A stretch of DNA of 64,000 bases from Nitrospinota bacterium (GCA_016176845.1 JACOWJ010000029.1:3397-67396); one strand, 5' to 3'. Positions 7,848 through 62,966 are shown, counted from the first letter of the stretch. Program-made: numbers and translations. Notes: generated from the letters alone by a model not told the origin.

Positions 7848-8405
7848 ATGAACACCGTGCGACGCGAGACCCCATTGCCCTCAGGGCAATGGATCCGGAT
7901 CGTGGAGGGGGATCTCACCCAAGAGGCCGTGGATGCCATCGTGAACGCGGCCAACGAGCGGCTCCAGCACGGGGGAGGAGTGGCGGGCGTCATCGTGCGC
8001 AAAGGGGGCCGGGTCATCCAGGAAGAAAGCAACCGGATCGGATACGTCCCAACCGGTTCCGCCGCCATCACCACGGGCGGGGCCCTGCCCGCCCGGCACG
8101 TCATCCACGCCGTAGGGCCCATCTGGGGCTCCGGGGACGAAGATAACAAGCTCATCTCCGCCATCCGGAGCAGCCTCCTCCTGGCTGAACAGCATGGACT
8201 CTCATCGATATCGTTTCCGGCCATCTCCTCGGGGATCTTCGGGTTCCCCAAGGACCGTTGCGCGCGCCTTCTGCTGGAGAGCACCCGGGACTTCTTGACC
8301 GATAACCCCTCTTCCCATGTCCGGGAGGTGCGCTTCTGCCTGTTCGATTCGCCCACGCTGGATGAGTTTATTACGGCCTTCGACAAGTTAGCTCAAAGCT
8401 CGTAG
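7848..8405 (+). CDS. Macro domain protein (ADP-ribose binding/hydrolase, YmdB-like)
   Basis: GDLTQEAVDAIVNAAN..LQHGGGVAG, VIHAVGP and FPAISSGIFGFP. Confidence 0.93.
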   Translation: MNTVRRETPLPSGQWIRIVEGDLTQEAVDAIVNAANERLQHGGGVAGVIVRKGGRVIQEESNRIGYVPTGSAAITTGGALPARHVIHAVGPIWGSGDEDNKLISAIRSSLLLAEQHGLSSISFPAISSGIFGFPKDRCARLLLESTRDFLTDNPSSHVREVRFCLFDSPTLDEFITAFDKLAQSS

Positions 8406-8536
8406 CTCATAGCTCATAGAGGGTTTAGCTCCGAGCTGAGAAAGGTAATTCCTATACGCTTAAATTACCCCCCCTTGCCCCCCCTTCGTAAGGGGGGGGT
8501 GGGGGGGTTCTTGGCTGAAAACGGAAATTCCTATAC
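8384..8536 (+). mobile_element. Two tandem miniature elements with IS91-like ends
   Basis: CAAGTTAG...heptamer repeats...GGTAATTCCTATAC (8384-8457), then TAAATTA...C/G hairpin...GGAAATTCCTATAC (8461-8536). Confidence 0.6.
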
Positions 8537-8606
8537 CTTAGATTTATGAATAATACAGGTTGAGTGAACAGCCGGCGAAGGAAGAAAAAAGGAGGAGGAT
8601 ACTCCC

Positions 8607-11030
8607 ATGGAAGAATACTCGGTGATCGGCCAGAGGATTCCCCGCGTGGACGGCCCCATCAAGGCGAGCGGAGAGGCGAAGTACGCCGCGGACCTCTCGC
8701 TGCCGGGCATGCTCCACGGGGCGATCTTGCGCACTCCCCTACCCCATGCCAGGATCTTGCAGATCGATGCCAGCCGGGCCGAGCGGCTGCCCGGGGTCCG
8801 GGCGGTGGTAGTCGGCCCGGACCTGGGAAATTTTAAGTACGGCTTTCTCCCCACCACGCGGGATGAGTCTCCCCTGGCGCTCGACAAGGTCCGCTTCATC
8901 GGGGAGGAGGTGGCCGCCGTGGCCGCCATCGACGAGGATACGGCCCAGGAGGCCCTCGAGCGGATCCGGGTGGATTACGAGGAGCTGCCGGCGGTCTTCG
9001 ATCCCCTCGAGGCAATGGCGGAAGGGGCCCCCCGCATCCACGACCACGCCGAGCGGAACGTCAGCGCCCGGGCCTCGATGAACTTCGGCGATGTAGAAAA
9101 GGGCTTTCGGGAGTCGGACCACATCCGAGAGGATCGCTTTGTCACCCAGCCCGTCCTGCACGGCTTCCTGGAGCCCCACGCCGTCCTTGCGAGCTACGAT
9201 AGCTCTGGGAAGCTGACGATCTGGGCCTCCAAGCAGAGCCCCTACTTCCTCTATCGCAACCTCTCTACCGCCCTGGGCCTGCCCTTGAGCCGGGTGCGGG
9301 TGATCCAGCCGTGCATCGGCGGGGGCTTCGGAGGCAAGAACGAGTCCTTCGCCCTCGACTTCGCCGCCGCCCTGCTCTCGAAGAAGACGGGCCGGCCGGT
9401 GAAGATCGTTTACTCCCAGGAAGAGGTTTTGACCGCCGGCCGCCGCCGCCACGCGATGATTCTGGAGCTCAAGACGGGCGTGAAGCGCGACGGCACGCTG
9501 GTGGCCAGTTCTTGTCGCAACATCGCCGACGGGGGGGCTTACACCAGCGTGGGGCCGCTCACCATCTACCTGTGCGGCGTCTTCCTGACGCTCCCCTACC
9601 GGCTTCCCCATGTCAAGTACGAGGCCTTTCGCGTTTACACCAACAAGCCGGTATGCGTGGCCCAGCGAGGAAACGGGATCCCGCAGATGCGCTTCGCCGC
9701 CGACTGCCAGCTGGACATGATCGCGCAGGACCTGGGCATCGATCCCGTGGAGATCCGCCTGAAGAACGCCATCCGCTCCGGGGACCGCACGGCGAACGAC
9801 CTGGCCATCACCAGCTGCGGCCTGAGCAAGTGCATCGAAAAGGTGGCCGAGGCAGCGGGCTGGGAGGAGAAGCGCCGGCAGCCCCGGGGGACGGGCAAGC
9901 TCCTGCGGGGGATCGGCTTGGCCTGCAATTCCCTGGTCTCGGGGGCCCGGTTGCGGGGCCACAACAGCTCCGGGGCGATGGTCAAGATCCATGAGGACGG
10001 CGGGGTAAGCCTGCTGACCGGGGCGACCGACTCGGGCCAGGGAGCCGAGACCGTCCTGGCCCAGATCGCCGCCGAGGAGCTGGGGGTCGGGGTGGAGGAC
10101 ATCCAGGTCTCCCGGGTGGACAGTGAGCTTACGCCGGTCGATCCCGGCAGCTACGGCAGCCGGGTGACCTCCATAGCCGGCAACGCCGTCAAGGCCGCCG
10201 CCGGCGATGCCCGCCGCCAGCTGGCCGAGGCGGCCGCCGAGCGGCTCGACGCCCTGCCCGAGCAGATCGAATTCCGCAATCGCCGGGTCTACGTGAAGGA
10301 AAGCCCCAGGCCCTTCGACCTCGCTCAGGACAGGCTCATCTCCCCGCCCGCTGCTGAAGCGGAGCCGAAGAGCATTCCCATGGGGGAATTGAAAGAAAGA
10401 AGGGAAGCCCAGACCGGGGGTAAGCTTCAAGCAACGGAGCGGGGGATGAGCTTTAAGCAGCTGGCGCAGCTGGCCTGTTACGCCGGCAGCGGCAAGACGA
10501 TCCTGGGGCGAGGCTCCTACGCCCACGATATCGAAGTGCCCAACTGGGAGACGGGCGAAGGGAACCTCTCGGCCGCTTACAGCTTCGGCGCCCAGGCGGC
10601 CGAGGTGGAGGTGGACACCGAGACGGGACAGGTCCGGGTGGTCAGCACCGCCGTAGCCCACGACTGCGGCCGGGCGATCAACCCCATGGCGGTGGAGGGG
10701 CAGTTCGAGGGCTCGATCTCCGCGGGGCTGGGCCAGGCCTTGCTCGAGGAGTTTACCCTCGAAGAGGGGAGCACCCTCAACCCCAGCCTCATGGGCTACC
10801 ATCTCCCCAGCGCCCCAGATATGCCCCCGGTGAAGACCGTCCTGGTGGAGACCCACGACCCCGTCGGTCCTTACGGAGCCAAGGAGGCGGGCGAGGGGAC
10901 GCAGATCTCCACGGTCCCCGCCATCGTCAACGCCATCAACCACGCCCTCGGGGTCTGGATCAAGGAGCTTCCCATCACGCCGGAAAAGATCCTGAAGGCC
11001 TTGGAGGAAAGAGGGGGACAACGAACATGA
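8607..11030 (+). CDS. Xanthine dehydrogenase family molybdopterin-binding subunit (4-hydroxybenzoyl-CoA reductase alpha-like)
   Basis: VIGQRIPRVDG, GGGFGGK, DSGQG, AHDCGRAINP..VEGQ and GAKEAGE. Confidence 0.93.
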   Translation: MEEYSVIGQRIPRVDGPIKASGEAKYAADLSLPGMLHGAILRTPLPHARILQIDASRAERLPGVRAVVVGPDLGNFKYGFLPTTRDESPLALDKVRFIGEEVAAVAAIDEDTAQEALERIRVDYEELPAVFDPLEAMAEGAPRIHDHAERNVSARASMNFGDVEKGFRESDHIREDRFVTQPVLHGFLEPHAVLASYDSSGKLTIWASKQSPYFLYRNLSTALGLPLSRVRVIQPCIGGGFGGKNESFALDFAAALLSKKTGRPVKIVYSQEEVLTAGRRRHAMILELKTGVKRDGTLVASSCRNIADGGAYTSVGPLTIYLCGVFLTLPYRLPHVKYEAFRVYTNKPVCVAQRGNGIPQMRFAADCQLDMIAQDLGIDPVEIRLKNAIRSGDRTANDLAITSCGLSKCIEKVAEAAGWEEKRRQPRGTGKLLRGIGLACNSLVSGARLRGHNSSGAMVKIHEDGGVSLLTGATDSGQGAETVLAQIAAEELGVGVEDIQVSRVDSELTPVDPGSYGSRVTSIAGNAVKAAAGDARRQLAEAAAERLDALPEQIEFRNRRVYVKESPRPFDLAQDRLISPPAAEAEPKSIPMGELKERREAQTGGKLQATERGMSFKQLAQLACYAGSGKTILGRGSYAHDIEVPNWETGEGNLSAAYSFGAQAAEVEVDTETGQVRVVSTAVAHDCGRAINPMAVEGQFEGSISAGLGQALLEEFTLEEGSTLNPSLMGYHLPSAPDMPPVKTVLVETHDPVGPYGAKEAGEGTQISTVPAIVNAINHALGVWIKELPITPEKILKALEERGGQRT

Positions 11031-12148: not shown

Positions 12149-12208
12149 TGGAGAGGACCCAATCGCTTGAACTTTTCGGACCGGCTCCAAAAAGAGCAGG
12201 AGGTTTCA

Positions 12209-17948: not shown

Positions 17949-17980
17949 TGCCTTTTCCTCCATAACCTTGATCGTGGATC

Positions 17981-18196
17981 GTGTAGGAATTTCCATTTTT
18001 TTCAGATTCCTCGGTCGCTATCGCTCCCTCGGAATGACAGCCGTACAACCTGTCATTCCGGGCGAAGCGAGGAATCTAAGTCCCAGAAACTGCCCAGGGG
18101 GAGGGTTCGCTTTCGGCAATGATCGTCGTTTCGGCCAACATTGTCATTTCGAGCGTAGCGAGAAATCTAAGATTTCTCCCTTCGGTCGAAATGACA
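17981..18196. repeat. Cluster of REP/RPE-like hairpins starting at an oriIS-like end
   Basis: GTGTAGGAATTTCCATTTT, then AGATTCCTCG...GGAATGACAG...CTGTCATTCC...CGAGGAATCT and TGTCATTTCGA...TCGAAATGACA. Confidence 0.7.
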
Positions 18197-21590: not shown

Positions 21591-21592
21591 CG

Positions 21593-39263: not shown

Positions 39264-39418
39264 CAAGTCAGCTCGTAGCTCGTAGCTCGTAGCGGGCTGA
39301 GTTCCGAGCTGAAAAAGGAAATTCCCTCAAGCTAAGTTTTAAGTTTTAGGTGTTAAGTTTTAGGTTTTTTGCTTAACACTTAAAACCTGAAACTTAAAAC
39401 TTTCCCGTAAATCCTGTC
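39264..39418 (+). mobile_element. Two head-to-tail miniature elements with IS91-like ends
   Basis: CAAGTCAG, three GCTCGTA units and GGAAATTCCCT, then CAAGCTAAG with a TTAAG heptamer hairpin and a degenerate end. Confidence 0.55.
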
Positions 39419-39822
39419 TAAAAAGGGGTAATCTCGTCGCCATCTTGGACTTCCAAGGCCTCCTTGAGGTTGTGGGGGGCAACGACCTCAAGCTTATCCA
39501 CCGGGTAGCCCGCCACCTCCGGGAAGACGATCGCCCCCGAGAGCTTTCCCTGGATAAGGACCTTAAAGCACTTGCCGTTGCAAAAGCCCGTCTCCGGCGG
39601 GACGATAGTGATTCCCGGCTGGTTTCTCAGCTCCCTCCACCGCTTCAAGACCTCTGCGCTATCCAGCCTCAGATTCAGCGTTCCGGGATAGGGATCGATG
39701 CCCACCTTGCCGATAAACTGTCCCTTAGCCCAAGGCAGCTCGGTGAAGAAACGCCCTTCTCCCAAGCCGGAGACGATGACCCCCTTCAGGCTGACTCCCC
39801 TCTGCGCTTTGTTCTCATCCAT
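39418..39822 (-). CDS. ribK: CTP-dependent riboflavin kinase (archaeal type, DUF120)
   Basis: LKGVIVSGLGEGRFF, PYPGTLN and LEVVAPHNLKE.L...DGD. Confidence 0.9.
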   Translation of the reverse strand: MDENKAQRGVSLKGVIVSGLGEGRFFTELPWAKGQFIGKVGIDPYPGTLNLRLDSAEVLKRWRELRNQPGITIVPPETGFCNGKCFKVLIQGKLSGAIVFPEVAGYPVDKLEVVAPHNLKEALEVQDGDEITPF

Positions 39823-42623: not shown

Positions 42624-42705
42624 CAAGTTAGGGGGGACAGGGCACAGGCCACAGGGAACACAGGGAAGAAGAACCCCTGTAAGCTGAAAATGGAAATTCC
42701 TATAC
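42624..42705 (+). mobile_element. Miniature element with IS91-like ends
   Basis: CAAGTTAG...(ACAGGG)n...AAAATGGAAATTCCTATAC. Confidence 0.65.
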
Positions 42706-42717
42706 TTTCAAGATAGA

Positions 42718-44250: not shown

Positions 44251-44338
44251 GCCGAAGTGGCGGAATTGGTAGACGCGCTAGATTCAGGGTCTAGTGGGCC
44301 CTGCGCCCGTAGGGGTTCGAGTCCCCTCTTCGGCACCA
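44251..44338 (+). tRNA. tRNA-Leu (anticodon CAG)
   Basis: GCCGAAG/CTTCGGC acceptor stem, D-loop GG, CTAGA-TTCAGGG-TCTAG anticodon arm, long variable arm, GTTCGA T-loop and encoded CCA. Confidence 0.97.
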
Positions 44339-48537: not shown

Positions 48538-48595
48538 GGTCTTAGCCTCCCTGCGAATTCCTCAAGTTAGGGGTTAGGGACTATGAGCTTTGAGC

Positions 48596-49459
48596 TTATC
48601 TTGCCAACGCGGCCGCCTGCATGAGGGTCCGGCTGGTCAGGGCCTGGACGATGGCCCGGCGATATTCGATCGAGCCCCGCATATCGGTGATGGGCCGGGC
48701 CTCTTGGGCAGCAGCCGTGCCGGCCTGGGCAGCCAGATCCTGGGTCAGGGCCTTCCCCGACAAGAGGGACTCCGCCTGGCGGGCTCGGAGAGGTGTAGGG
48801 GCTACCGCCCCCAGCGTGATCCGGGCTCCAGCGCAAACCCCATCTTGAAAGGAAACGCAGGAGGCTACGCAGACAATGGCGATCTCCATGGCTTTGCGCA
48901 CTCCGTGCTTCAGGAAGATGGCTGCGCTCCGCTGTGCGGCGGGAGGAACCTTCAGGGCCACCAGGAGCTCATCATCTTTGAGGACCGTCTGGTTGGGACC
49001 GGTAAAAAAGTCCTCCAGCAGCAGCTCCCGTTGGCCTGCAGATCCCTGGATCACTGCCGTGGCCCCCAGAGCAATCAGGGGAGGGGCCATGTCGGCCGAG
49101 GGGACCGCGTGGCAGAGGTTGCCGCCGACGGTGCCCCTGTTGCGCACCTGAACGGAGCCAATCGTCCCGGCGGCCTGGGACAGGACAGGGTAATGGCCGG
49201 CGATGTCGCGGTTGGCCAAAATATCGGAATGGGTGGTCATGGCCCCGATCCTCAGTCCCGAGCTCGCATCATAGCTGATCCCCCGCAGAGAGGAGAGCTT
49301 TTTCAAGTCGATCAGGGCCGCCGGCGTGGCCAACTTATTCTTGAGCTGGGGCAGGAGATCGGTCCCTCCCGCCAGGGGAACTCCCCTGCCCTTGTGCTGG
49401 GCTAGCATGGCAATCGCCTGATCCACCGAAGTGGGGGCAAAATAATCGAAGGCTTGCAC
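48596..49459 (-). CDS. FAD-binding subunit (CoxM/XdhB-type)
   Basis: LAGGTDL, QVRNRGTVGGNL and GAVAPTP; GTG start with a GGGAGG RBS. Confidence 0.95.
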   Translation of the reverse strand: MQAFDYFAPTSVDQAIAMLAQHKGRGVPLAGGTDLLPQLKNKLATPAALIDLKKLSSLRGISYDASSGLRIGAMTTHSDILANRDIAGHYPVLSQAAGTIGSVQVRNRGTVGGNLCHAVPSADMAPPLIALGATAVIQGSAGQRELLLEDFFTGPNQTVLKDDELLVALKVPPAAQRSAAIFLKHGVRKAMEIAIVCVASCVSFQDGVCAGARITLGAVAPTPLRARQAESLLSGKALTQDLAAQAGTAAAQEARPITDMRGSIEYRRAIVQALTSRTLMQAAALAR

Positions 49460-49698
49460 GGTTGACCCCTCCCTTTCTAAATGCAGTGAAGGTGAAGAGA
49501 GGTCGCCCAAAACCAGGCAGTCCTGGCGACTCTCCCCTCGGTGAAGTTGACAAAGACAAAAGACAATGGTAACCCAAAGACCCACCCTCCTACGAGGTTG
49601 ACCGGGAGGCGGTGTCTTCCGGGGGCTAACCTCCACAAAAAGCTAGGGTTACTCTATTACATCTGACATTCCGTCGTCAATATTTTTTTCACTGGATC

Positions 49699-50066
49699 GT
49701 ATAGGTATTTCCATTTTTCGTCCCCCTCCCCCTGACCTCGCACCAGGGGAGGGTTGGGGTGGGGGTGAACCTAACTTGCGAATTCCTCTCTTGACTTTCT
49801 CCGTTCCCAGATGTACTTTTTCCACAGGGCAAATTCCTATCCAAAAATCTCCCCAAGAGCAAATTCCTATCCAAGAAAGATAGGGTTAAGATTGTCCATG
49901 ATTTGGACGATACAAAGGGTAATCAGCCGATCGAACCCTGCCCGGCCGGTGCGATCACCGGTACCTATAGCGGCCAAGGTTGCTCGCCGAACCATGGCAG
50001 CGCTATATTAAATTATCCCCCCTTGCGAAGGGGGGGGTTCTTCGCTAAAAATGGAAATTCCTATAC
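49699..50066. mobile_element. Cluster of miniature IS91-like elements and ori-like ends
   Basis: GTATAGGTATTTCC...CTAACTTG (49699-49778); two GCAAATTCCTATCCAA ends 30 bp apart; TAAATTA...GGAAATTCCTATAC (50009-50066). Confidence 0.6.
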
Positions 50067-50074
50067 GACCCAGG

Positions 50075-50180
50075 TACACTGCCAATGGCGAGATCGAGAG
50101 CAAGGCTTCGGGGACCGGACTACGACCTATGTGTACCGCATTTTAAGAAACCTTATGACTGCCGTCTCGCTGGAAGGACG
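50075..50180 (+). pseudogene. RHS/YD-repeat fragment
   Basis: YTANGEIESK, then after a frameshift GDRTTTYVY..L.NL..V..EGR. Confidence 0.45.
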
Positions 50181-50190
50181 CGCGTGTAGT

Positions 50191-52095
50191 ATGGGAATGA
50201 AACGTTACAACTTTTTAAAAATAATTTCGGCGATTTCGGGGTCGATGTGTCTGTTGGCATCCTCCTTACCTGTTGAAGCTGATGTCCTTGAAAAAATCCA
50301 AATTCCCCTTTCTTACCTACAAAAGAATGATATTTCCACCCACTCTGAAGTGAAAAAAAGCCTTCTATCTTTGAATAAGTGGATTAGCAAAAGAGACAAA
50401 AAGGGGATAAAAAAAACAATAGATAATCTTAAAACGATTCGTCTAAATTGGGGGAGCAGGAATCTTCCGTTTATCGCGGATTTCCTCCGAGGAAAAGGCC
50501 AATTCTTGTTTCAATTAGAGGAATATGATTTGGGGATTTTTCTGTTGGAACAGGCTAAAGATGCATTTCCTGAAGATTATAGAATTCGTTTTTCTCTCAC
50601 TAAAATTTATTGCTCTAATCAGGGATTTGACCTTAGAAAGGGATATTTAAACCTGAAAGATGGACTTGGGCTTTATCTAAATTCAAAATTGAGGCAAGAT
50701 CGGTTTGTTTATTCTTCCATTATTTTATTTTGTTTCGCTTTTGTAATTTCCATTTATCTCTATTTTATGCTTCTTCTATTGAAAAATTATAAAAAAGTAA
50801 GCTATGATCTCAAGAAAATACTAGGACTCAATGTTAAATCGTTATTTTCATCTTTCTTTACAATTCTTCTTATCCTACTTCCAGGCATCGCAGGTAGTTT
50901 TTATGTTTTTATCCTGTCTATCCCTGCCTTTATCTGGCCTTATTTGAGAAATTTAAACAAAGCTATTTTGGCTGTGTTTACTGCATTTCTTTTATTTTGT
51001 CCGATTACATTGGGTTATGCTGTAGAAGGAATCATAAAATACAACTCCTCTTATAACGGAAAACTTGATGATTTTTCCCATAATGTTTGGGACACCGAAA
51101 CGTTAAATTATTTTAAAGACCGTCTTAATAAAGACATGCATGATCCTTTTATCAATACATCTGTAGGATTACTCTACAAATGGATGGGAGATCTAAATAA
51201 ATATCATCGCATATTTAACAAACTTAATCAGGATAACCCAGATCATGTACCCACTTTGATCAATTTTGGAAATTCCATGCTTTTATCTGGAAAGCTTGAT
51301 GAAGCGATGAAGCTCTACCAACAAGCCCTGAAGATTGCCCCTAATAGCGTAGAAGCCCATTATAATTTAAGTCTGGCTCTGGAGGAGAATATGAAATTTG
51401 TGGAGGCGAGAGGAGAGTATCAGAAAGCGCACGCCATAGATCCAATCAGGCTTCAGCGTCTTCTGTCTCAATTCTTGGCCCAAAAATCCAATAACGTGCA
51501 ACCAATGGATAAAATCGCAGATATTCCCAAATTTGAAGCGACAGAAAATTCCCAGATCTTATCAAACCAAATGAAGGAAGAGGTGTTAAATTTTCTCTTA
51601 ATTCCACTCTTACGAAAAGAATCGATCATTCCCTTCGCGACTTCGCTACTTTTTCTCATACTGCTTATGCTATGGCGTTACAAAATATTAACCAAAGCAA
51701 GCGAACAATGTGATACCTGCGGTACAGTCTTTGAGCGGGAAATGAAATGCCCGTTGTGCATTGCCATGAAGACATCCCACATGCGGCTAGATCCTGAAAA
51801 AAGGGAAATGGCGTCTGTGAAGATATGGAGATATTCCATATTTAAAAAAACTGTTCCAACCCTATTTAATGCGATCTTACCCGGATCAGGTCTACTTTTT
51901 GACGATTCAGATCTAGCAGGGTTTGTTTTTATTTTTTTGACCCTATTTTTGGTTATTTGCGGAGCCCTCTTTTTAATTTGTCCTTCACAGCCTTTTCAGG
52001 TTGAAGTAATCATTACTTTTTTGGCTGGGTACTATATGATCATTAACTTTCTTTTTATTTTTCAAACTAAAATATGGCACTTAAAGGAAATTTAA
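50191..52095 (+). CDS. Membrane TPR protein with Zn-ribbon
   Basis: Signal-like N-terminus, TM helices, TPRs (EAMKLYQQALKIAPNSVEAHYNL) and CDTC...CPLC. The longer ORF start at 49903 runs through repeats. Confidence 0.85.
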   Translation: MGMKRYNFLKIISAISGSMCLLASSLPVEADVLEKIQIPLSYLQKNDISTHSEVKKSLLSLNKWISKRDKKGIKKTIDNLKTIRLNWGSRNLPFIADFLRGKGQFLFQLEEYDLGIFLLEQAKDAFPEDYRIRFSLTKIYCSNQGFDLRKGYLNLKDGLGLYLNSKLRQDRFVYSSIILFCFAFVISIYLYFMLLLLKNYKKVSYDLKKILGLNVKSLFSSFFTILLILLPGIAGSFYVFILSIPAFIWPYLRNLNKAILAVFTAFLLFCPITLGYAVEGIIKYNSSYNGKLDDFSHNVWDTETLNYFKDRLNKDMHDPFINTSVGLLYKWMGDLNKYHRIFNKLNQDNPDHVPTLINFGNSMLLSGKLDEAMKLYQQALKIAPNSVEAHYNLSLALEENMKFVEARGEYQKAHAIDPIRLQRLLSQFLAQKSNNVQPMDKIADIPKFEATENSQILSNQMKEEVLNFLLIPLLRKESIIPFATSLLFLILLMLWRYKILTKASEQCDTCGTVFEREMKCPLCIAMKTSHMRLDPEKREMASVKIWRYSIFKKTVPTLFNAILPGSGLLFDDSDLAGFVFIFLTLFLVICGALFLICPSQPFQVEVIITFLAGYYMIINFLFIFQTKIWHLKEI

Positions 52096-53216
52096 AAGAT
52101 TTTTCGATTAATAATATTCTCCAGATGATTTTTCTGGAGAAAAAGGGTGGGAGGCTTCTTGTAACCTCCGGAAAAGAATCGATTTCCGTTTTTTTTGATG
52201 AAGGGAAAATACTTCATGCGGAGCAAGGGGGGATAATTGATAAAAGAAGAATGAAACGAGTATTGCTTAAAAATCAATATTTAACTAAAGAACAGTGGGA
52301 TTTGATGGTGGAAGAAAGTGAACGCACCTTTCAACCCCTATGGATACTTTTATCTCGCATTTTAGAAAAAAATACCCATGCATTCCTTTTTCTTCACCAA
52401 CGTCATATTGAACATGTCCTTTTTAGCCTCCTTCGATGGGAGAGGGGTGAGTATGAATATAACCCAGAAGACGTCCCCCACCTGGATAAAAAGGTATTCA
52501 GGCCGGTTGAAGGGGAATTCCTTCTGATGGAAGGATATCGAGTTATCGATGAGTTGAAAAAACTGGAATCCAAGCTTCCACCGATGGAAACCAAGATCTT
52601 TACTTCAACAGAGTATAACAAAATAGTGACTGAAAATGATATTCGAGTCGATGATAACGAAAGATACATTCTGTCGATTTTAGAGCAACCCATATCCCTG
52701 AATGACCTTTTCGATTCAAGTCAGATTAATATTTGTGAAACAGGGAAAGGCGTTGAAAAGTTACTATCTTCAGGCATTTTAACGGTCTTATCAAAAGGAG
52801 AAGTACCTAAACTATCGGACAAATCAACGCATAACTGGAGGAAGCACGCTGTTGTCGGGTCGATATTTTTTTCCGTATTCCTCGGAATTTTGGTTCGAAC
52901 AAAATATTTGGATACAGAATTCGCATCAAATCAATTAGTTAACAGGTATAAAATAATTCAGGTAACAGATACAATGAACAATATTGTAAAATCATTGAAG
53001 TTTTACATTTCACTAACAGGAACATTTCCATATAATCTTGAATCATTGGTGAAAGAGGGCTACATCTCAAGGAAAGAAACCTTGGATCCATGGGGAAGAC
53101 AATTTATCCTTGAAAAAAATAGCCAATTTTTTGCAATCTTTAGTCAAGGTCCCTCCCCGGATGATCCTGGAGATGATATATATTTTCATTTGGATAACCA
53201 ATTTTATCACGAATGA
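52074..53216 (+). CDS. DUF4388 (PATAN-like) protein with TM helix and GspG-like C-terminal domain
   Basis: MALKGNLKDFS..NILQ...KKGG.L and LLRWERGEY; C-terminal G.FP..L..LV...LDPWG...SQGP. Confidence 0.88.
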   Translation: MALKGNLKDFSINNILQMIFLEKKGGRLLVTSGKESISVFFDEGKILHAEQGGIIDKRRMKRVLLKNQYLTKEQWDLMVEESERTFQPLWILLSRILEKNTHAFLFLHQRHIEHVLFSLLRWERGEYEYNPEDVPHLDKKVFRPVEGEFLLMEGYRVIDELKKLESKLPPMETKIFTSTEYNKIVTENDIRVDDNERYILSILEQPISLNDLFDSSQINICETGKGVEKLLSSGILTVLSKGEVPKLSDKSTHNWRKHAVVGSIFFSVFLGILVRTKYLDTEFASNQLVNRYKIIQVTDTMNNIVKSLKFYISLTGTFPYNLESLVKEGYISRKETLDPWGRQFILEKNSQFFAIFSQGPSPDDPGDDIYFHLDNQFYHE

Positions 53217-53222
53217 CTTGTA

Positions 53223-54080
53223 ATGGATAAAACAGAAGAGAGACAGAACCCCTCGACATACTTAAAATTGGCCCAGACCTTCTTAAGTCTGGGCGATGAC
53301 GATCTTGCAAGACTGACCTGCGAGAGAGGGCTAAAACACTTTCCAACAGATGCGAGCCTGCATACTCAGAGGGGAAGTACATTAATCAGCTCGTACAACA
53401 AATCGAAGAAAACGGAAGATCTTATTCAGGCAATTAAGTCTTTCGAGAAGTCTATAGCCATCAATCCCGACAATTATCTCGCATTGATGTTGTCTGCCAA
53501 GATTTATATTAAGGTAAAAGCCTACTTTAAGGCCAGACAAAAACTTACGATGATTCTTTCATCTTTTCCCGGAGATCCTAAGGCGACTGAATTGCTAAAG
53601 TTAATTTCAGCTAAGGAACAGCATTTGAAGCTAGTAGACGAAGAAAAACTGCAAGTAGAGCTAGAAGGCGATGATGATGATATTGATAGTCAGGAAGATC
53701 AGATTTCAGCTAATTACGATTTACTAGCCTCCTATCTAAACCTATTTAAGGAGGAATATGGAATTGAGATGGTATTGTTGGTAGATAAATATGGAATGGT
53801 TATTAAAAGTATTAATATGTCAAAACGAGATTCCAACCGATACGGGATCGCTGTTTCAAATATATTCAGGTCGTCTCAAAACGCCGTGCGGAAAACGAGT
53901 CTTAGCACCTTTTCGAAAGGATTTTTAATCACTCCTGAATACAACATCTACATTGTGGATGTAAAAGGTACCATCTTAGTCATTGTAACACTCCCTAAGG
54001 CCGAAAATGAAGGGATTGAAAAGAGAATCGAACATTATGTCAGAGAAATAGACTCAAAATGGACATCGAAGAAATCCTGA
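53223..54080 (+). CDS. TPR plus Roadblock/LC7 domain protein
   Basis: N-terminal TPRs, an acidic linker, then GIEMVLLVDKYGMVI. Confidence 0.8.
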   Translation: MDKTEERQNPSTYLKLAQTFLSLGDDDLARLTCERGLKHFPTDASLHTQRGSTLISSYNKSKKTEDLIQAIKSFEKSIAINPDNYLALMLSAKIYIKVKAYFKARQKLTMILSSFPGDPKATELLKLISAKEQHLKLVDEEKLQVELEGDDDDIDSQEDQISANYDLLASYLNLFKEEYGIEMVLLVDKYGMVIKSINMSKRDSNRYGIAVSNIFRSSQNAVRKTSLSTFSKGFLITPEYNIYIVDVKGTILVIVTLPKAENEGIEKRIEHYVREIDSKWTSKKS

Positions 54081-54415
54081 AAAAGCTGAACAGGAACAAA
54101 CATATCAAAGGAAGTCTGGTGATTACCCAAGAAGGTATGGTGGTAATGTCGGCATTGGGGGCCGGGCAAAACGCTGACATTTTTGCTGCTTTCTATTCCT
54201 CCGTGGGCTTAACCATTTTGAAATCATTAAAGAACTTAGACATTGAAACCTTTTATCGGTATATCTTATCGTCCGAGGATTCCAACCTTTTTTTTGTTAA
54301 CATTGGAAAACTGTACCTTGTGGTCATAACCGATATCGATGTGAAACTGTCGGAAATGAATGTGGAACTTTATCAGATCGAGAGCCTAATTCGAAAAACG
54401 GGGCGCCTTGAATAA
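54059..54415 (+). CDS. Roadblock/LC7 protein (MglC-like)
   Basis: IKGSLVITQEGMVV...FAA; 118 aa. Confidence 0.85.
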   Translation: MDIEEILKKLNRNKHIKGSLVITQEGMVVMSALGAGQNADIFAAFYSSVGLTILKSLKNLDIETFYRYILSSEDSNLFFVNIGKLYLVVITDIDVKLSEMNVELYQIESLIRKTGRLE

Positions 54416-54441
54416 CCATAAAAATAGCTCACGGTAAAACA

Positions 54442-55791
54442 ATGCAGATCAATTTTTTTAAACGAGAAGTCATTTGTAAAATTGTATATTATGGTCCGGG
54501 GATGAGTGGAAAGACCACGAACCTACAGCAAATTAATGAAAAAACCCCGGTGGACCTCAGGAGCAATCTAACCTCGATTGCAACGGAAGGCGAAAGAACC
54601 CTTTTTTTTGATTATATGCCCCTAAACCTGGGAACCGTTGGTGATATGAACACAAAATTTCAATTGTACACTGTGCCAGGTCAAGTCTATTATAATGCAA
54701 CGAGGAAGCTTGTACTTCAGGGAACGGATGGGGTTGTTTTTGTAGCAGACTCTCAAAATGATAAATTGAATGAAAACATTGAATCTCTACAAAACCTGGT
54801 TGATAATCTTAAAGAATATGGGATCTCGATAAAAGATATTCCTCTGGTTATCCAGTGGAATAAAAGAGACCTACCGAATGCTTTGGATATTGAATATTTG
54901 GAAAAAAACATTAATAAATACAACGTTCCTAGTACAGAAGCAGTTGCTGCAATAGGTGAAGGTGTTGTAGAAACTTTAAAACTCATTTCATCTTTGGTCC
55001 TTGCAAATTTAACCCAAAAACAAAGTACAACGATCTCTGTGACCCAAAAACAAAGCACCACCACTTCTATAACCCAACAACAAAGTAGAGCCGCCTATCC
55101 GACCCTAAAACAAAGAACAACCGCTTCTCCTTCTCCCCAACCCTCAAAAACCACCCTTTTGCATAGGGTCCGGCAAGTTGGACAGAGGTATCTCGGCTGG
55201 ATGCGGCGGAAAGAAAAAATATTAGCGACGATTGATGATGTGAATATTAACAAATCCTATATGATAAATTTTTACAACTTGCAGGTAAGAATGAATGCAA
55301 AATCACCCGTAGAGGATAACTATGATAATTTATCCCAATCGGAGAAGAAAGACTATCTTGATCAACTGATCAACCATTATCTGCTTCTTGGGGAATCTAA
55401 AAAGATAGGGATAACAATATCAAATCAAGAAGTAGATAAATACCTGAATCTTTACGTTAATAAATATGGATCAGAAGAGAAATACAAAACCTACCTCACC
55501 CAAAGGAAGCTAAAACTGGAAGACATAAAGAATGAAATCATCAAACAAATTATTATTAACAAAATTATTAAAATAAAAATCCCTAATTTTCAAGAAAAAC
55601 TCAAAGTAGATGAAAATGAACTTTTAGATTACTACAAAACCAATCTGAAAAAAGTAAATGTTCCTTTTGAAAGCCAAAAAAAAGAAATTGAACAGGCCTT
55701 AACTAAACACAAAAAATCAAAATTGAACCAGGAGCTCTTTCAGATTTTGCGCAGCAAAAATACAATAAAGACCTATCCGGAGAATTTATGA
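54442..55791 (+). CDS. mglA: MglA small GTPase fused to a SurA/PrsA N/C-core-like domain
   Basis: KIVYYGPGMSGKTTN, RTLFFD, LYTVPGQVYY and NKRD; repeat linker; ILATID...LDQLI..LL..E.KKIGITIS..EV. Confidence 0.9.
   Translation: MQINFFKREVICKIVYYGPGMSGKTTNLQQINEKTPVDLRSNLTSIATEGERTLFFDYMPLNLGTVGDMNTKFQLYTVPGQVYYNATRKLVLQGTDGVVFVADSQNDKLNENIESLQNLVDNLKEYGISIKDIPLVIQWNKRDLPNALDIEYLEKNINKYNVPSTEAVAAIGEGVVETLKLISSLVLANLTQKQSTTISVTQKQSTTTSITQQQSRAAYPTLKQRTTASPSPQPSKTTLLHRVRQVGQRYLGWMRRKEKILATIDDVNINKSYMINFYNLQVRMNAKSPVEDNYDNLSQSEKKDYLDQLINHYLLLGESKKIGITISNQEVDKYLNLYVNKYGSEEKYKTYLTQRKLKLEDIKNEIIKQIIINKIIKIKIPNFQEKLKVDENELLDYYKTNLKKVNVPFESQKKEIEQALTKHKKSKLNQELFQILRSKNTIKTYPENL
55011..55130 (+). repeat. 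Four degenerate 30 bp coding tandem repeats (TQKQSTT linker)
   Basis: ACCC(A/T)A(A/C)AACAAAG recurs every 30 nt. Confidence 0.85.
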
Positions 55792-55827
55792 TCGGGTATC
55801 GGATGAATCCGATTAGGAGGAATCTTT

Positions 55828-56346
55828 ATGAACGCCGACGATCAAAAACTTCGCGATGAAAATCTGAGTTTTTACTTTGAAGATATCGAAAAAATTGATA
55901 AAGTGCTTAGTAATTTTCTCACTTTATCGAAGGCCAAGTCTGTTTTTCTGATCGATAAAAGTGGCAGCATGATAACCTATAAAGGGGAGAATCAATCTAT
56001 CAATGTTGATGAATTGTCCGCTCTTGTGGCCGCAAGTTTTGCCGCCACCAAAGAAATAGCCCGTCTCTTAGGTGAGGCTGAATTTACGGTCATGTTCCAT
56101 CAGGGGAAAAAAGATAATATCCATATCAGCCTGATCGGAAACAAAGCCATATCCGTAACCCTATTCGGTGATGATACCACTGTTGGAATGATCGGCCATT
56201 ACTCAAAAGAACTTTCACACAAACTTGCGTCCATATTCGAAATCATATCCAAAAGGATTGTCCGACATCAGGAGCAGATTGCCGGGGATTTAGGCGCATT
56301 CGTCGAAAATAAACTGAATGAACTTTTTAAGGTCTATCCCTCGTAG
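55828..56346 (+). CDS. mglB: MglB Roadblock/LC7 GAP-like protein
   Basis: [38 protein letters not shown] and T.GMI. Confidence 0.9.
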
Positions 56347-58298: not shown

Positions 58299-58393
58299 CG
58301 AGCGATCTTTTCCGCTGACCCCCCGGACTGCGAACGGATCTGCGCATTTACCGTTTTTTTCGGAGGGAGCCTGAGGGATCGAAGCGGGTTCTC

Positions 58394-58732: not shown

Positions 58733-58780
58733 CTCCGATTCTCCTCAAACTTCCATGTCCCTGCGAGCAAAGCCAAGAGT

Positions 58781-58968
58781 CTAACTTGAAGGAATTTCCT
58801 TATCTAAATCTAAGCTCAGGACTCAGCCCTCTATGAGCTATGAGCTACGAGCTTTAAGCTAACTCGATTGTATAGGAATTTCCTTTTCCGATGAATGGGG
58901 GACCATGAGCAAGGGATAGGGGGAGGGAGTGACTAGCCCCTGTCCCCTGTCCCCTGTCCCCTAACTTG
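58781..58968 (-). mobile_element. Head-to-tail stack of miniature IS91-like elements
   Basis: Read on the + strand: CTAACTTG, AAGGAATTTCC...CTAACTCG, then GTATAGGAATTTCC...(CCCCTGT)3...CTAACTTG. Confidence 0.65.
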
Positions 58969-58973
58969 TCCAG

Positions 58974-59666
58974 TCACTGAATTCCCAGGTACTTGTGCAG
59001 CTGCAGTTGGAGGCGGACCGGGAGGCGATCCTCCAGGATCCAGCGCGCCACCTGGCTTGGATCAAGCTGGGGGAGGGCCGCCGAGAGCAGGACAGTGAAT
59101 CGCTGGGCCAAGGAACCGTCCCGAATCACCTGCCGGGCCCATTCGTAGTCCTGGCGGCTGCTGAGGACGAACTTGATCTCGTCCCTGGAGGTCAGTCGCT
59201 CCAGGTTGTCCCAGCAGATCTGGCTCGACATCCCGCTGTCGGGGCATTTCAGATCCAGGATCTTGATGGCCCGGGGATCGAGCCGGCCCACGTTCAGGCT
59301 CCCGTTGGTCTCCACCAGGACCTGGCAACCCTTCTCCAACAGCTGCTCCACCAGGGGGTAGACCCCTTCTTGCAAGAGGGGCTCGCCCCCCGTGACCTCC
59401 ACCAGCCCCCCCTCCGGATGGGCCACCTCCGCCAAGATCTCCTCGATACTCCTCTCGCGGCCCTGGTCGAAGGCGTAAGCGGTGTCGCAGTAAGTGCAGC
59501 GCAGGTTGCACCCGGCCAGCCGGACGAAGATGCAGGGCCAGCCCGCATAAGTGGACTCTCCTTGTATGCTGTAGAAGATCTCGTTCACTCTCAGTGGGGT
59601 CAGTTCAAGCCCACCCCTTTTTCCCGCTTTGGAGTTTTGAGTTTGGGCTGTCAAAGGTTGTCCCAT
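58974..59666 (-). CDS. queE: 7-carboxy-7-deazaguanine synthase (radical SAM)
   Basis: EIFYSIQGE, FVRLAGCNLRCTYCDT, TGGEPLLQ, ETNG and QLHKY. Start codon uncertain. Confidence 0.95.
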   Translation of the reverse strand: MGQPLTAQTQNSKAGKRGGLELTPLRVNEIFYSIQGESTYAGWPCIFVRLAGCNLRCTYCDTAYAFDQGRERSIEEILAEVAHPEGGLVEVTGGEPLLQEGVYPLVEQLLEKGCQVLVETNGSLNVGRLDPRAIKILDLKCPDSGMSSQICWDNLERLTSRDEIKFVLSSRQDYEWARQVIRDGSLAQRFTVLLSAALPQLDPSQVARWILEDRLPVRLQLQLHKYLGIQ

Positions 59667-59881
59667 TCCTCGGGAGTGATTGCTCGCCCAATGATTCCCT
59701 CAACCTCGTGGACCATCATACGAAGCTGTGAGAGAGAGTACTCGCGGTTCGAGGGAATCGCAAGCCGATGACTTTGATAGGTCATAAAGCGATGGCGGGT
59801 TCCGGCAAAAGGGCCATCGAAGCCAAGCACCCGTAGCTTCCGGATAAAGTCTTGACGCTTACAAGGTCTCCACTCGCTCAC
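59651..59881 (-). CDS. hicA: HicA family toxin
   Basis: FIRKLRVLGFDGP..G.RH.FM and LAIP. Confidence 0.85.
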   Translation of the reverse strand: MSEWRPCKRQDFIRKLRVLGFDGPFAGTRHRFMTYQSHRLAIPSNREYSLSQLRMMVHEVEGIIGRAITPEEWDNL

Positions 59882-60146
59882 GGTGTGGCTTTCGGTTTAA
59901 GTCGATGCCCTTAATAATGGGGAGGTGATGACCCATTTTTAATCCTAAAATGATCCAATCCTCCAGAACGGAACGTAATGCGGTTTCACACTCACGTAGC
60001 CTCCCTGCAAAGGCTATCACGCCTTTACAGGGAGGGATACGACCCGCATAGGACCCATCCCCTAATTTATCGTAGACAGCCTCAGCCAAGGCTCCTTCAA
60101 TGTACTCCGTCAATACAAGTTTCATCCAGGAGGCCTTCCAATCCAT
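59859..60146 (-). CDS. hicB: HicB family antitoxin
   Basis: YIEGAL..AVY, DGSYAGRIP.C.GV.A and LEDWI..GL..G..LP. Confidence 0.85.
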   Translation of the reverse strand: MDWKASWMKLVLTEYIEGALAEAVYDKLGDGSYAGRIPPCKGVIAFAGRLRECETALRSVLEDWIILGLKMGHHLPIIKGIDLNRKPHRERVETL

Positions 60147-60331
60147 GACGCCTGATGACTCCCCGGTTCCCGCAGCCTCCCGCAAAGACACCCCACATTG
60201 CCAACATACAGGTTTCCACGTGGCTGAGGAATGGGTCTATCGAGGGGATATAGCCCTGCCGATGAGAAATTTAAGTTGAACAGGACTTTTCCTTAAAACC
60301 AGATTACCTCCGAGGCCAGCGAAAGTCAAAG

Positions 60332-60427
60332 GATTTTTACCGTAAAAATGCCCGAGTCTCTCTGGAGCCCATTTTCATTTTCGGGGGCGGCCAACTCTGC
60401 TTGGTTGGCCATGTCGATTTCCAGAGG
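60332..60427. repeat. ~90 bp dispersed motif, copy C
   Basis: GATTTTTACCGTAAAAATGCC...CCATTTTCATTTTCGGGGGCGGCCAACT...GTTGGCC. Confidence 0.75.
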
Positions 60428-60602
60428 TCAAAGATCGCGGTCGATTTTCCCTTGCATTCGCGCGGCCGAGCGTGTAAGCTTCAAAAAAAGCTCCGCGGTA
60501 CCCTTATCTCCCTCGCAATCCTTGAGAAGTGCGGCGTGCGCATCCAGCCTGAGAATCCATCGTGAGAACAAAGAGGAAAGCGGGGAGAGGGTTTCCCCAT
60601 GA

Positions 60603-61973
<1,371 letters not shown>

Positions 61974-61991
61974 TACCTGGTACAACTCCAC

Positions 61992-62478
61992 CGTTCCGGT
62001 GGAGATGCCGGAGCACAAGGGGCTCTTCGGAGACTTCTCCCATCGCCATGCCGCTGCTGCGGCCGGACTGGGGCAATTTGGCCGCAACACCCTGCTGATC
62101 ACGCCCCAGTTCGGGCCCCGCGTGTGGCTCGGCAGCGTGATCACCACGGCGCCGCTGGAGGCAACCCCCGTGGCGGCAGGGCTCTCCCCTTGCTGCAACG
62201 GCTGCCATCGCTGCGTCGAGGTCTGTCCGGTTCAGGCCCTTACCGGGGACAGGATCGACGCAGCGCAGTGCGCGCGGGGAGGCGTGCACGCCCAGAACCT
62301 CAGCGGCCTCGTCCGCCAGATCAAGACGGTGCTGAATGAGACCGACCCGAAAAAAAGGTTGAGGATCGCGACAGGCCCCGAGACATGGGAAATTTACCAG
62401 TCGATGGTCTGTGGCATGATGCCCAGCTGCAATAAATGCGTGCTGATTTGCCCGGCAGGGATAACCATTGGAGCTTAA
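61992..62478 (+). pseudogene. 5'-truncated epoxyqueuosine reductase (QueG)-like 4Fe-4S protein
   Basis: SHRHAA..AGLG.FGRN.LLI.PQFG, CNGCHRCVEVCP and CNKCVLICP; the N-terminal domain is missing. Confidence 0.7.
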
Positions 62479-62485
62479 CTCCTTC

Positions 62486-62513
62486 CCCCTCCCAGGCTTT
62501 TGCTTGGGAGGGG
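62486..62513. terminator. Hairpin between convergent genes
   Basis: CCCCTCCCAGGC-TTTT-GCTTGGGAGGGG. Confidence 0.55.
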
Positions 62514-62543
62514 TCTCCTTGCTTCAACGAGGAGCTCCAGCCG

Positions 62544-62633
62544 TTATTTCTTCTTGTGGCGCATCCGATCCCGGAGCTTCTTGTGCTTGTGCTTGCGCAT
62601 TTTTTTGCGCCGCTTTTTGATTACACTTCCCAT
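62544..62633 (-). CDS. 29 aa basic protein, AURKAIP1/COX24 (bS22-like ribosomal protein)
   Basis: MGSVIKKRRKKMRKHKHKKLRDRMRHKKK; RBS GAGGGG; below the ORF-track length cutoff. Confidence 0.9.
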   Translation of the reverse strand: MGSVIKKRRKKMRKHKHKKLRDRMRHKKK

Positions 62634-62773
62634 AGCCCCTCTCTTTCTACTCCTTCAATATTCTTCTCAACCTGGATGATGCTTTCAACCACCGATGAGG
62701 AGGCTTTCCGGTCAGGAGAAACCCGATCCCCTTCATGCCCGGCGGCCCTTCGTTCCTCTCCTGAAGACGCGAA

Positions 62774-62802
62774 ATTATAGGCCAAAAATGGGCCCATGTC
62801 AA
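62774..62802 (-). promoter_or_regulatory. Consensus sigma70 promoter
   Basis: TTGACA-N17-TATAAT, upstream of the bS22-like gene. Confidence 0.8.
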
Positions 62803-62824
62803 TAGAAATACCCTAAAAACCCCC

Positions 62825-62853
62825 TTGACGTCCGGGGCTATCCATGCTACGCT
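62825..62853 (+). promoter_or_regulatory. Divergent sigma70 promoter
   Basis: TTGACG-N17-TACGCT with an extended TG. Confidence 0.6.
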
Positions 62854-62868
62854 CTGCAGAAATCCGTT

Positions 62869-62966
62869 CAAGTTAGGGATTAGGGATTAGGGGCTAGTAA
62901 GAAAGAAGAGCTTTTGCTAATCCCTAGCCCCTAGTCCCTAGCCCCTAAAAATGGAAATTCCTATGC
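62869..62966 (+). mobile_element. Miniature element with IS91-like ends and a TTAGGGA heptamer hairpin
   Basis: CAAGTTAG(GGATTAG)n...(CTAGCCC)n...AAAATGGAAATTCCTATGC. Confidence 0.65.

Follow-up and report, generated by a model that had tools for sequence, protein, structure and literature searches.

A window of 64,000 nucleotides (nt) from a Nitrospinota bacterium (GCA_016176845.1, contig C35, positions 3397 to 67396) was analyzed together with the rest of this genome. The assembly consists of 61 contigs with a total of 1.53 Mb, a completeness of 68%, and a G+C content of 58%. Between the genes of the window lie short units that begin with a left or termination (ter) end and terminate in an origin end. 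An earlier note made from the sequence had listed about 12 such intergenic units with common ends, and all 12 are present (Table 1). Matches to GGAAATTCCTATAC with up to two mismatches were found 11 times in the window, compared to 0.33 expected, and none of 100 shuffles reached 11; the left-end sequence CAAGTTAG was found eight times, with 0.84 expected. Nine of the 12 units possess a left end plus a recognizable origin end, and this number includes the unit at 39328-39418 only loosely, its origin end being decayed beyond recognition. The exact 14-mer of the origin end is present in four units, a shortened origin end (GGAAATTCC, YT, CAAG) in two, 39264-39327(+) and 58789-58866(-), and one unit, 48563-48598, is a left fragment without an origin end. 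As judged from their sequence, the units are probably non-autonomous miniature derivatives of an IS91-family (HUH, two-tyrosine) rolling-circle insertion sequence (IS), and a probability of roughly 0.8 is assigned to this interpretation. It agrees with that of the earlier note and is supported by the match of the origin end to IS91, the co-occurrence of both ends, and the absence of terminal inverted repeats (TIRs) and target-site duplications (TSDs).

Table 1. Mini-elements and related pieces in the window
Feature	Position	Strand	Interior and ends
Mini-element, class A	8384..8460	+	(GCTCRTA)n interior; left end CAAG-TTA; origin end GGTAATTCCTATAC-GCT
Mini-element, class F (C7/G7 hairpin)	8461..8539	+	Left end TAAA-TTA; exact origin end, then CTT
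Mini-element, class E (GGAATGACA hairpin)	17978..18083	-	Left end GGAC-TTA; origin end GGAAATTCCTACAC-GAT
Mini-element, class A	39264..39327	+	Shortened origin end AAAAAGGAAATTCC-CT; adjoins element 39328-39418
Mini-element, class D ((AAGTTTT/AGGTTTT)n hairpin)	39328..39418	+	Left end CAAG-CTA; origin end decayed
Mini-element, class C ((GGGRACA)n)	42624..42708	+	Exact origin end, then TTT, then CAAG-ATA
Fragment	48563..48598	+	Left end CAAG-TTA; pieces of class B and class A repeats; no origin end
Mini-element, C/G-rich hairpin	49696..49778	-	Left end CAAG-TTA; origin end GGAAATACCTATAC-GAT
Solo origin-proximal piece of full-size IS91-type element	49780..49872	+	Two GCAAATTCCTAT ends 30 nt apart; aligns with the tail of the transposase remnant on contig C20
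Mini-element, class F, short form	50009..50069	+	Left end TAAA-TTA; exact origin end, then GAC
Mini-element, class A	58789..58866	-	Left end CGAG-TTA; shortened origin end AAGGAAATTCC-TT, then CAAG-TTA
Mini-element, class C	58867..58968	-	Exact origin end, then AAT; inserted against the CGAG-TTA left end of its neighbor
Mini-element, class B ((TTAGGGR/CTAGGGG)n hairpin)	62869..62969	+	Origin end GGAAATTCCTATGC-GAT, then AAAT-TTA

For the evaluation of the whole genome, all origin ends with R at position 13 and up to two mismatches were collected. This resulted in 199 ends, or about one per 7.7 kb, of which 195 were usable. The 14-mer occurs in 59 exact copies and in 145 copies with up to one mismatch. 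A position matrix of 144 copies showed the conserved right block to be AAAAW GGAAATTCCTATRC GAT, followed by YAAR TTA, and conservation ends there. The conserved block that had been described at this end thus exists but is longer than stated, and the base that varies at the end of the A-run is T or A instead of the claimed T or C. The left end CAAGTTAG is recurrent, as reported, but its first four bases are a tetranucleotide of the CAAG, TAAA, CGAG, or GAAC kind. The left boundary of each unit reads YAAR-TTA again, and the interior starts directly after it. When the left-end pattern was searched 30 to 150 nt upstream of the origin end on the same strand, it was present for 128 of the 195 ends, compared to 27 of 195 for the reversed pattern and 60 of 2,000 random windows, so that both ends co-occur far above chance, as the earlier note had expected. 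The number of usable ends that form full units is 127, and these units are 54 to 161 nt long (median, 99 nt) and non-coding.

The two ends match at 3.74 of 14 positions, compared to 3.5 by chance, and are not TIRs. Duplication of the target was evaluated with 61 units that possess the GAT and have no other element stacked at their right side. Their left and right 7-mers agree at 4.51 positions, compared to 4.33 after shuffling, a value reached by 100 of 2,000 shuffles, and exact matches of both 7-mers were found five times while 4.8 were expected in this permutation test. The absence of TIRs and TSDs, as had been noticed from the window, holds for the genome, and the units are not miniature inverted-repeat transposable elements in the strict sense, which are DDE derived and possess a TIR plus a TSD. 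The left 7-mer is specific for the class of the unit, being GAACTTA, GGACTTA, or GTACTTA in the classes E and G outlined below, while the right 7-mer of class E and G units varies. This indicates that the left word is part of the element, the right word being part of the target.

The interiors can be sorted into at least seven classes, four of which are made of 7-base repeats. These are class B with (TTAGGGR/CTAGGGG)n (37 copies), class C with (GGGRACA)n (28 copies), class A with (GCTCRTA)n (14 copies), and class D with (AAGTTTT/AGGTTTT)n (13 copies), followed by class G with a GCAATGAC hairpin (12 copies), class E with an GGAATGACA hairpin (11 copies), class F with a C7/G7 hairpin (7 copies), and 5 copies with interiors outside the named classes. 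Folded as single-stranded DNA, the interiors have a median energy of -16 kcal/mol and a median z value of -3.35 against dinucleotide shuffles, and 87 of the 127 z values are below -2. Pairing starts most often 2 nt after the left tetranucleotide (45 of the 127 units). Some hairpin classes are made of slippage-prone 7-nt repeats, and the number of heptamers differs between the copies of one class, as expected from slippage. The interiors had been called “interchangeable cargo.” They differ indeed between copies but are better read as alternative ter hairpins than as passengers.

Capture of flanking DNA, which the earlier note had considered possible, was not seen in this genome, where, with the exception of one pair, which is a paralogous gene pair, no two copies remain similar beyond about 200 nt from the origin end. 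An 800-nt alignment ending at two origin ends was evaluated as a candidate for captured cargo and rejected, as it represents a paralogous gene pair on the other strand.

Some units are stacked head to tail, as claimed, with junctions at 8460/8461, 39327/39328, and 58866/58867 in the window. The genome contains 11 directly abutting pairs, and each of them joins unlike classes; one tandem pair of the same class was found in another genome (locus L053). The 7-mer at the junction follows the class of the right-hand element, with GAACTTA or GTACTTA in front of all four class E or G elements in the 11 pairs. This match fits an insertion against the ter end of a resident copy. At the first junction of the window, the left end TAAA-TTA of the unit 8461-8539 also served as the target for the element at its left, 8384-8460.

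The GCAATGAC hairpin occurs 40 times in the genome. It is joined to the IS91-type end in 16 cases, is located within three unrelated inverted-repeat families in 11, 6, and 3 copies, two of which also carry the IS91-type end, and is found in none of these frames in 6 cases. Examples are located at C7:17517, C7:33953, C14:42202, C47:12672, and C60:3480. In its complete class G form, GATTGCTTCG...GCAATGAC...GTCATTGC, the hairpin is the center of the three families with inverted ends (AGTACAACTCCAC..., CTAGTACAGCTTGGCGCAAG..., and GCGATTTCTTAAAAAGAA...). Within the IS91-type frame, it is present in both orientations, 11 versus 3. The occurrence in three inverted-repeat families and in both orientations indicates that hairpin modules are exchanged. 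Taken further, this distribution could mean that the hairpins themselves are the primary mobile units, small palindromic modules that move between repeats, with the IS91-type end being merely one of their frames. Such an explanation leaves the constant left tetranucleotide-TTA and the constant origin end around all classes unexplained, and no insertion boundaries of the hairpin itself could be defined. It is improbable as a replacement for an IS91-type origin of the units and is compatible with such an origin rather than opposed to it.

A similarity of the origin end to IS91-family ends had been stated in the earlier note, and the origin end was compared with ends read from annotated records of plasmids. 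The IS91 ends of Escherichia coli read ...AAATTCCTATCGAT, followed by CAAG or CGAG. In one plasmid with five ends of the form ...GGGGATTTAAATTCCTATCGAT, two are followed by CAAG and unrelated DNA, and three by CGAG-TA-GGCAGCC-TGGC-GGCTGC, which is the start of the next IS91 in tandem. The IS91-family element of the E. coli plasmid pCTXM-2269 ends with ...CAATTTCCTATACGT, followed by GAAC, and ISVsa3 carries ...TTCTTCCTATACGT, with another record of the same match group labeling the element ISCR2. The end of the ISCR1 copy that was compared gave no information on this feature. A tblastn search with the transposase fragment of a sister genome (G001), which belongs to the same order and is the only other member of the phylum in the genome collection used, led to plasmid pIAE1 of Trichlorobacter lovleyi, and the T. 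lovleyi protein led in turn to classical IS91 elements. Plasmid pIAE1 contains 10 full or nearly full copies of an IS91-family element, 100% identical, and 1 end fragment. The transposase of this element has 445 amino acids (aa) and matches Zn_Tnp_IS91 and Y2_Tnp. All 11 right ends read ...CATCGAAAAAGCAAATTCCTAT, with divergence one base later, and may also be written as ...AAAAAGCAAATTCCTAT; behind several of them, short parts of the end are repeated (...GCAAATTCCTATTCCT...GCAAATTCCTATTCCT). The left boundaries of the T. lovleyi element are at three different places, which is the read-through known for the IS91 family; variable left boundaries are absent in the mini-elements, where the similarity stops at the left end.

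Compared to the 5 IS91 ends, the 11 T. lovleyi ends, the pCTXM-2269 element, and ISVsa3, the units possess an origin end of the same ...AAATTCCTAT / TTCCTATAC type at the very terminus. The stated likeness is thus real, with AAATTCCTAT-R-CGAT in this genome and AAATTCCTAT-CGAT in E. coli IS91. An end of this type is missing in a different, integrase-linked IS91 subgroup, to which 27 of 29 loci belong, so that it defines a subgroup and not the whole IS91 family. Since the yeast FRT site also contains TTCCTATAC, an FRT-like site was considered and rejected, there being no inverted pair around a spacer here.

The earlier note had suggested tabulating the four nucleotides outside the origin end. 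The GATY directly after TATRC is not the target. Its GAT is part of the origin end, like the CGAT in IS91, and the target tetranucleotide comes next. Read on the other strand, the tetranucleotides after the 195 origin ends were CTTG (45), TTTA (19), CTCG (14), ATTT (12), TTCA (11), and GTTC (8), among others, with T at position 2 in 159 of 195. According to passages of a published report on IS91 (PMC13181058), the targets of this element are 5'-CTTG and 5'-GTTC, with GTCC, GTAC, and CTCG as minor ones and T kept at position 2, and its ter end is cleaved at 5'-CTCG beside a subterminal palindrome, with no duplication of the target. The units likewise show a tetranucleotide adjoining the origin end without duplication, and a subterminal palindrome beside the cleavage tetranucleotide without inverted ends. 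The ter end of IS91 reads CGAG-TA-hairpin and that of the mini-elements YAAR-TTA-hairpin, which is the same layout of a tetranucleotide, 2 to 3 nt, and a hairpin. Both are flanked by CAAG or CGAG (5'-CTTG or CTCG on the other strand), lack inverted ends and TSDs, and form head-to-tail junctions. On the other hand, the IS91 repeat unit has 1,829 nt, and the mini-elements are gene-less and much shorter; they differ from IS91 further by a target preference of 7 nt (YAARTTA), by the 199 ends in 1.53 Mb, and by the lack of a cognate transposase in the genomes searched.

These features need to be compared with those of HUH systems of the Y1 type, either IS200/IS605 with its palindrome-associated elements or repetitive extragenic palindromes (REPs) with REP-associated tyrosine transposases (RAYTs). 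Both insert beside a short specific word without duplication and rely on a hairpin, and the cleavage sites of IS200/IS605 resemble each other, as the left and right 7-mers do here. That such a system moved the units is nevertheless very improbable. The end matches that of IS91 base for base, down to the CGAT and the flanking CAAG/CGAG, and there is one hairpin per unit instead of one at each end. Y1_Tnp (PF01797) had no match in this genome, although the absence of a Y1 transposase is not proven with a genome that is only 68% complete, and the same search was positive in 6 of 14 control genomes. In sum, neither a Y1 HUH transposase or RAYT nor hairpins at two ends or REP doublets, which would characterize derivatives of these systems, were found.

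The units are not restricted to this genome. The exact 17-mer AAWGGAAATTCCTATRC is present 99 times in this genome, 7 times in the sister genome, and not in 29 other genomes, with zero matches for the reversed control. A scan for AWGGAAATTCCTATRCGAT with one genome per species yielded at least 84 stretches, and metagenome-assembled genomes of Desulfobacterota-type lineages, Omnitrophota, Latescibacterota, Verrucomicrobiota, Planctomycetota, Chloroflexi, Nitrospirae, Nitrospinota, Zixibacteria, and others are among the matches listed. In 80 loci among these, 49 of 82 matches have a preceding A-run and a following xxAxxTA-like word. The tetranucleotides of these 49 canonical matches include CTTG (18), TTTA (11), CTCG (3), and GTTC (2), and the 95 nt upstream fold well in 24 of them. 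The remaining matches are inside of coding sequences and look like chance. The interiors vary with the lineage, CACGAAG/CTTCGTG and ACAGGAT repeats being examples, and the sister genome has its own AT-rich hairpins. Five mini-element-bearing genomes, G031 to G035, contain 24, 102, 30, 38, and 10 ends with up to one mismatch, versus 1 to 5 in reversed controls. Twelve matches on viral contigs were rejected as mini-elements; all of them lack the context of A-run and tetranucleotide and are due to chance or coding. When 86 loci were compared with this genome by BLAST, no close relative was found, the best match being about 76% over 181 nt. A metagenome scan with a neighboring protein gave only four loci with 37 to 39% identity, too distant for a search for empty sites. 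Twelve sequencing runs with matching DNA are labeled as groundwater metagenome.

The units are located between genes, as had been stated for the window. Using a crude in-house gene caller, the mean coding overlap is 6% in a genome that is 82% coding, and 96 of the 127 units are without overlap. In 22 of 60 cases, the ter side is not more than 15 nt away from the 3' end of a gene. An intergenic location, the proximity to gene ends, the well-kept 14-mer with its 59 exact copies, and the persistence of mini-elements in the complete genome G031 without a transposase could also be explained by functional sites kept by the host, such as a structure at the transcript end or a palindrome, GGAAATTCC, to which a dimeric protein binds, with the IS91 likeness being incidental or the elements being domesticated. 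Sites of this kind do not account well for the lack of a strong orientation bias toward the neighboring genes, with the four arrangements found 50, 38, 26, and 10 times. Neither strand reads as a canonical terminator, since an A-run comes after the hairpin on one strand and a T-run before it on the other. No Rfam family matches the units in the window, the only match there at the gathering score being a tRNA gene at 44251-44335. Stacks of two to three units and the spread across phyla with lineage-specific interiors fit selfish spread better, which leaves host-kept sites as an improbable explanation.

Individual units touch the neighboring genes. The open reading frame (ORF) 7800-8405, which encodes a Macro-domain protein, extends 22 nt into the mini-element 8384-8460, and this element appears to supply the last seven codons and the stop codon. 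The decayed origin end of the unit 39328-39418 overlaps the 3' end of ORF 39418-39822(-). Elsewhere in the genome, two paralogous genes near C31:4954 and C33:48078, with about 68 to 72% DNA identity, each possess a class B mini-element just upstream of the start codon but at different distances.

The units do not encode an HUH Y2 transposase with Zn_Tnp_IS91 and Y2_Tnp. With 54 to 161 nt of non-coding sequence and only two decayed transposase remnants in the genome, they can only be non-autonomous derivatives. A search of this genome with the Pfam profile Y2_Tnp gave one fragment, C24:137-214, and the frames of the remnant at C24:137-338 are broken, with an HUH-like HPHLH piece and a zinc-ribbon piece from the C terminus left. 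The second remnant, C20:16641-16868, is 46% identical to the T. lovleyi transposase over 79 aa (tblastn; E value, 5e-15) and holds an RYYGWY motif and an in-frame stop; tblastn searches with four other IS91-family transposases gave no match in this genome. About 250 nt past the C20 remnant, TTGACT-17-TATAAT is followed by AAAGCAAATTCCTAT-CGAG-ACAAATTCCTAT at the end of the contig. This decayed copy, C20:16641-17147, carries thus a consensus-like outward promoter just before the origin end. This copy and the other decayed copy, C24:137-700, have a common downstream region, 89% identical over 214 nt, and the solo copy at 49780-49872 in the window aligns with the C20 tail. These remains indicate that a full-size IS91-type element once resided in this genome. 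Its end is a GC variant without RCGAT, both GG and GC variants being covered by the pattern G[GC]AAATTCCTATRCGAT, and the element is therefore a relative of the presumed partner of the mini-elements, not demonstrably the partner itself.

Several results weigh against an IS91-type origin of the units. A Y2 transposase with the same ends, which the earlier note had suggested to search for, was not found in this genome (68% complete), the decayed genes on C24 and C20 being the only ones. A full-size element with the GG-type end GGAAATTCCTATRCGAT, or an intact transposase with these ends, was not found in any genome searched, the sister genome included, most of these genomes being incomplete. In 80 loci, 65 of the 110 large ORFs (at least 180 aa) upstream of the motif were scanned, and none of the 65 encodes a transposase, all being ordinary genes, in a scan that left out ORFs running through the motif and overlapping alternative frames; tblastn with five IS91-family transposases also found nothing in the 80 loci fetched. 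Y2_Tnp is absent from G031, a complete chromosome with 24 ends, from G032 with its 102 ends, and from G035; it is present in G033 and G034 but does not adjoin the motif there. A plasmid search in PLSDB with the 41-nt canonical end yielded nothing meaningful. The ter hairpins of the mini-elements share no sequence with the IS91 ter hairpin and come in at least seven classes, and GAT follows TATRC in only 99 of 195 copies. Paralogous empty sites within this genome gave seven candidates, all being stacks or a complex origin-to-origin arrangement and none of them clean. Finally, the nearest-neighbor identity within the classes is only 0.86 to 0.94, with few pairs at 0.95 or above, and the activity of the units may therefore be old. 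In addition, 96 genomes of the order of G033 were surveyed, of which 35 possess Y2_Tnp genes; none of the 29 loci examined has an AAATTCCTAT-type end (up to one mismatch) after the gene, and 2 of the 29 have TTTTCCTATAT.

The decayed state of the transposase genes and the identities of 0.86 to 0.94 may also mean that the copies are dead debris. Full-size IS91-type elements that have since decayed, or single one-ended transposition events, would then have left behind solo origin ends, each located near a host hairpin by chance. The occurrence of shortened origin ends and the 68 of 195 ends without a recognizable left end within 150 nt point in the same direction. What recurs in the genome, however, is the whole unit from the tetranucleotide to the origin end, with 127 full units and seven classes of 7 to 37 copies. 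The association of the left-end pattern with the origin end in 128 of 195 cases, compared to 27 of 195 in the control, the end of the similarity between copies at the left end, and the stacks with insertions against resident ter ends are likewise not in agreement with debris, which is an unlikely explanation on the whole.

For mini-elements of IS91 type, we infer a cutting chemistry, the supply of a transposase in trans, and past or present mobility from the comparison with IS91. On the strand of the finding, the order of a unit is the ter tetranucleotide YAAR, TTA, the hairpin with its foot about 2 nt after the tetranucleotide, the A-run AAAAW, and the origin end GGAAATTCCTATRC-GAT, with the target YAAR-TTA outside of the origin end. 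On the other strand, the transposase supplied in trans would introduce a nick 3' of the target tetranucleotide (5'-CTTG, TTTA, CTCG, or GTTC), in a predicted context of 5'-TAACTTG/ATCGTATAGGAATTTCC, and would remain attached to the element strand at its 5' end (5'-ATCGYATAGGAATTTCC...). Starting at the freed 3'-OH, replication would peel off the element strand up to the hairpin plus the 5'-TAAYTTR signal, where a second cut may release the strand, which would then be joined 3' of another TAAYTTR-like site. The hairpin may bring both ends of the displaced strand side by side. A rolling-circle mechanism would explain that there is neither a TSD nor inverted ends. Head-to-tail stacks of unlike elements would arise because a resident copy offers its ter end as a target. 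Several hairpin classes could share one origin end because only the 22-nt origin end would need to be constant, while the ter side would need just a hairpin beside the tetranucleotide.

Some other features of the region may be mentioned. The window contains a low-G+C island at 50100-56346, with 0.36 to 0.38 compared to about 0.60 in the surroundings. It codes for TPR proteins, DUF4388, three Roadblock/LC7 proteins, and a small Ras/Arf-like GTPase fused to a SurA_N-like part, a gene set that looks like a module of the MglA/MglB type. Origin-type ends at 49829-49872 and 50009-50069 are located directly left of the island and point at it. Just past the end of the window, at C35:69886-69925, two origin ends are arranged face to face at a distance of 12 nt (GGAAATTCCTCTAC ... 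GTATAGGAATTTCC), and a similar, overlapping origin-to-origin pair is located on the reverse strand of C16 near 35650.

A broader hypothesis can be formulated, although it is doubtful. The 22-nt IS91-type origin end, which is almost identical in bacteria of many phyla, might be a universal “launcher,” with any hairpin beside TAAYTTR serving as the stop signal, so that host hairpins and 7-base repeats would be turned into new mobile families, and hairpin modules would be swapped with inverted-repeat elements. This might be a general source of the unexplained heptamer-repeat hairpins in Xanthomonas, cyanobacteria, and others, perhaps driven by transposases on plasmids or in other members of the community.

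With respect to known systems, IS91 and ISCR are best known from Proteobacteria, where these gene-carrying elements move resistance and virulence genes. The literature covered, which did not extend to subscription journals and ISfinder, contained no description of natural IS91-type elements of 60 to 160 nt with a high copy number. Among the nearest known systems are the miniature right-end fragments of IS801, an IS91-family element of Pseudomonas syringae, with 229, 360, and 679 nt, ending at the consensus tetranucleotide (Bardaji et al. 2011, PMC3189936). According to passages of that report, these fragments resemble the mini-elements in being gene-less, keeping the right (origin) end, and stopping on the left at a consensus tetranucleotide, and their transposition was demonstrated. 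They consist of IS801 sequence itself, are made afresh from full copies, remain at a low copy number, and have no left hairpin or repeat, whereas in the mini-elements the IS-like sequence is reduced to about 22 nt, to which unrelated hairpins are joined, and the copy number is high. A laboratory mini-IS91 is composed of terIS (89 bp), a marker, and oriIS (82 bp), as described in parts of PMC13181058, and demonstrates the same logic, since ter plus origin ends suffice with the transposase in trans. It is artificial, and the natural mini-elements are shorter than either of its arms.

Intergenic heptamer hairpins were described for Xanthomonas (GGGAATC) and Nostoc (GGGGAYT) (Rehm et al. 2015, PMC4692102). 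Like the mini-elements, these are G-rich 7-nt repeats between genes, in Xanthomonas often in convergent pairs able to form hairpins, and the passages of that report considered here draw no link to mobile elements. Should the interpretation of the units as IS91-type mini-elements be true, it would provide a testable origin for intergenic 7-base-repeat hairpins. It would also mean that an origin end of about 22 nt, a hairpin, and a 4- to 7-nt word are the smallest cis requirements known for IS91-type transposition. Repeat finders that look for inverted ends and TSDs will miss such mini-elements, which appear to give neighboring genes stop codons and by which assemblies are probably broken.

The non-autonomous Helitrons of eukaryotes also use rolling-circle transposition with an HUH enzyme, possess asymmetric ends and a hairpin near the termination end, produce no TSD, and are present in abundant gene-less copies. 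Helitrons differ in being eukaryotic and in using another enzyme, a Rep-helicase fusion, as well as other end sequences and another target, so that the likeness is an analogy of mechanism and not membership. If IS91-type mobility of the mini-elements holds true, they would be a prokaryotic counterpart of the non-autonomous Helitrons, distributed across many phyla of uncultured bacteria.

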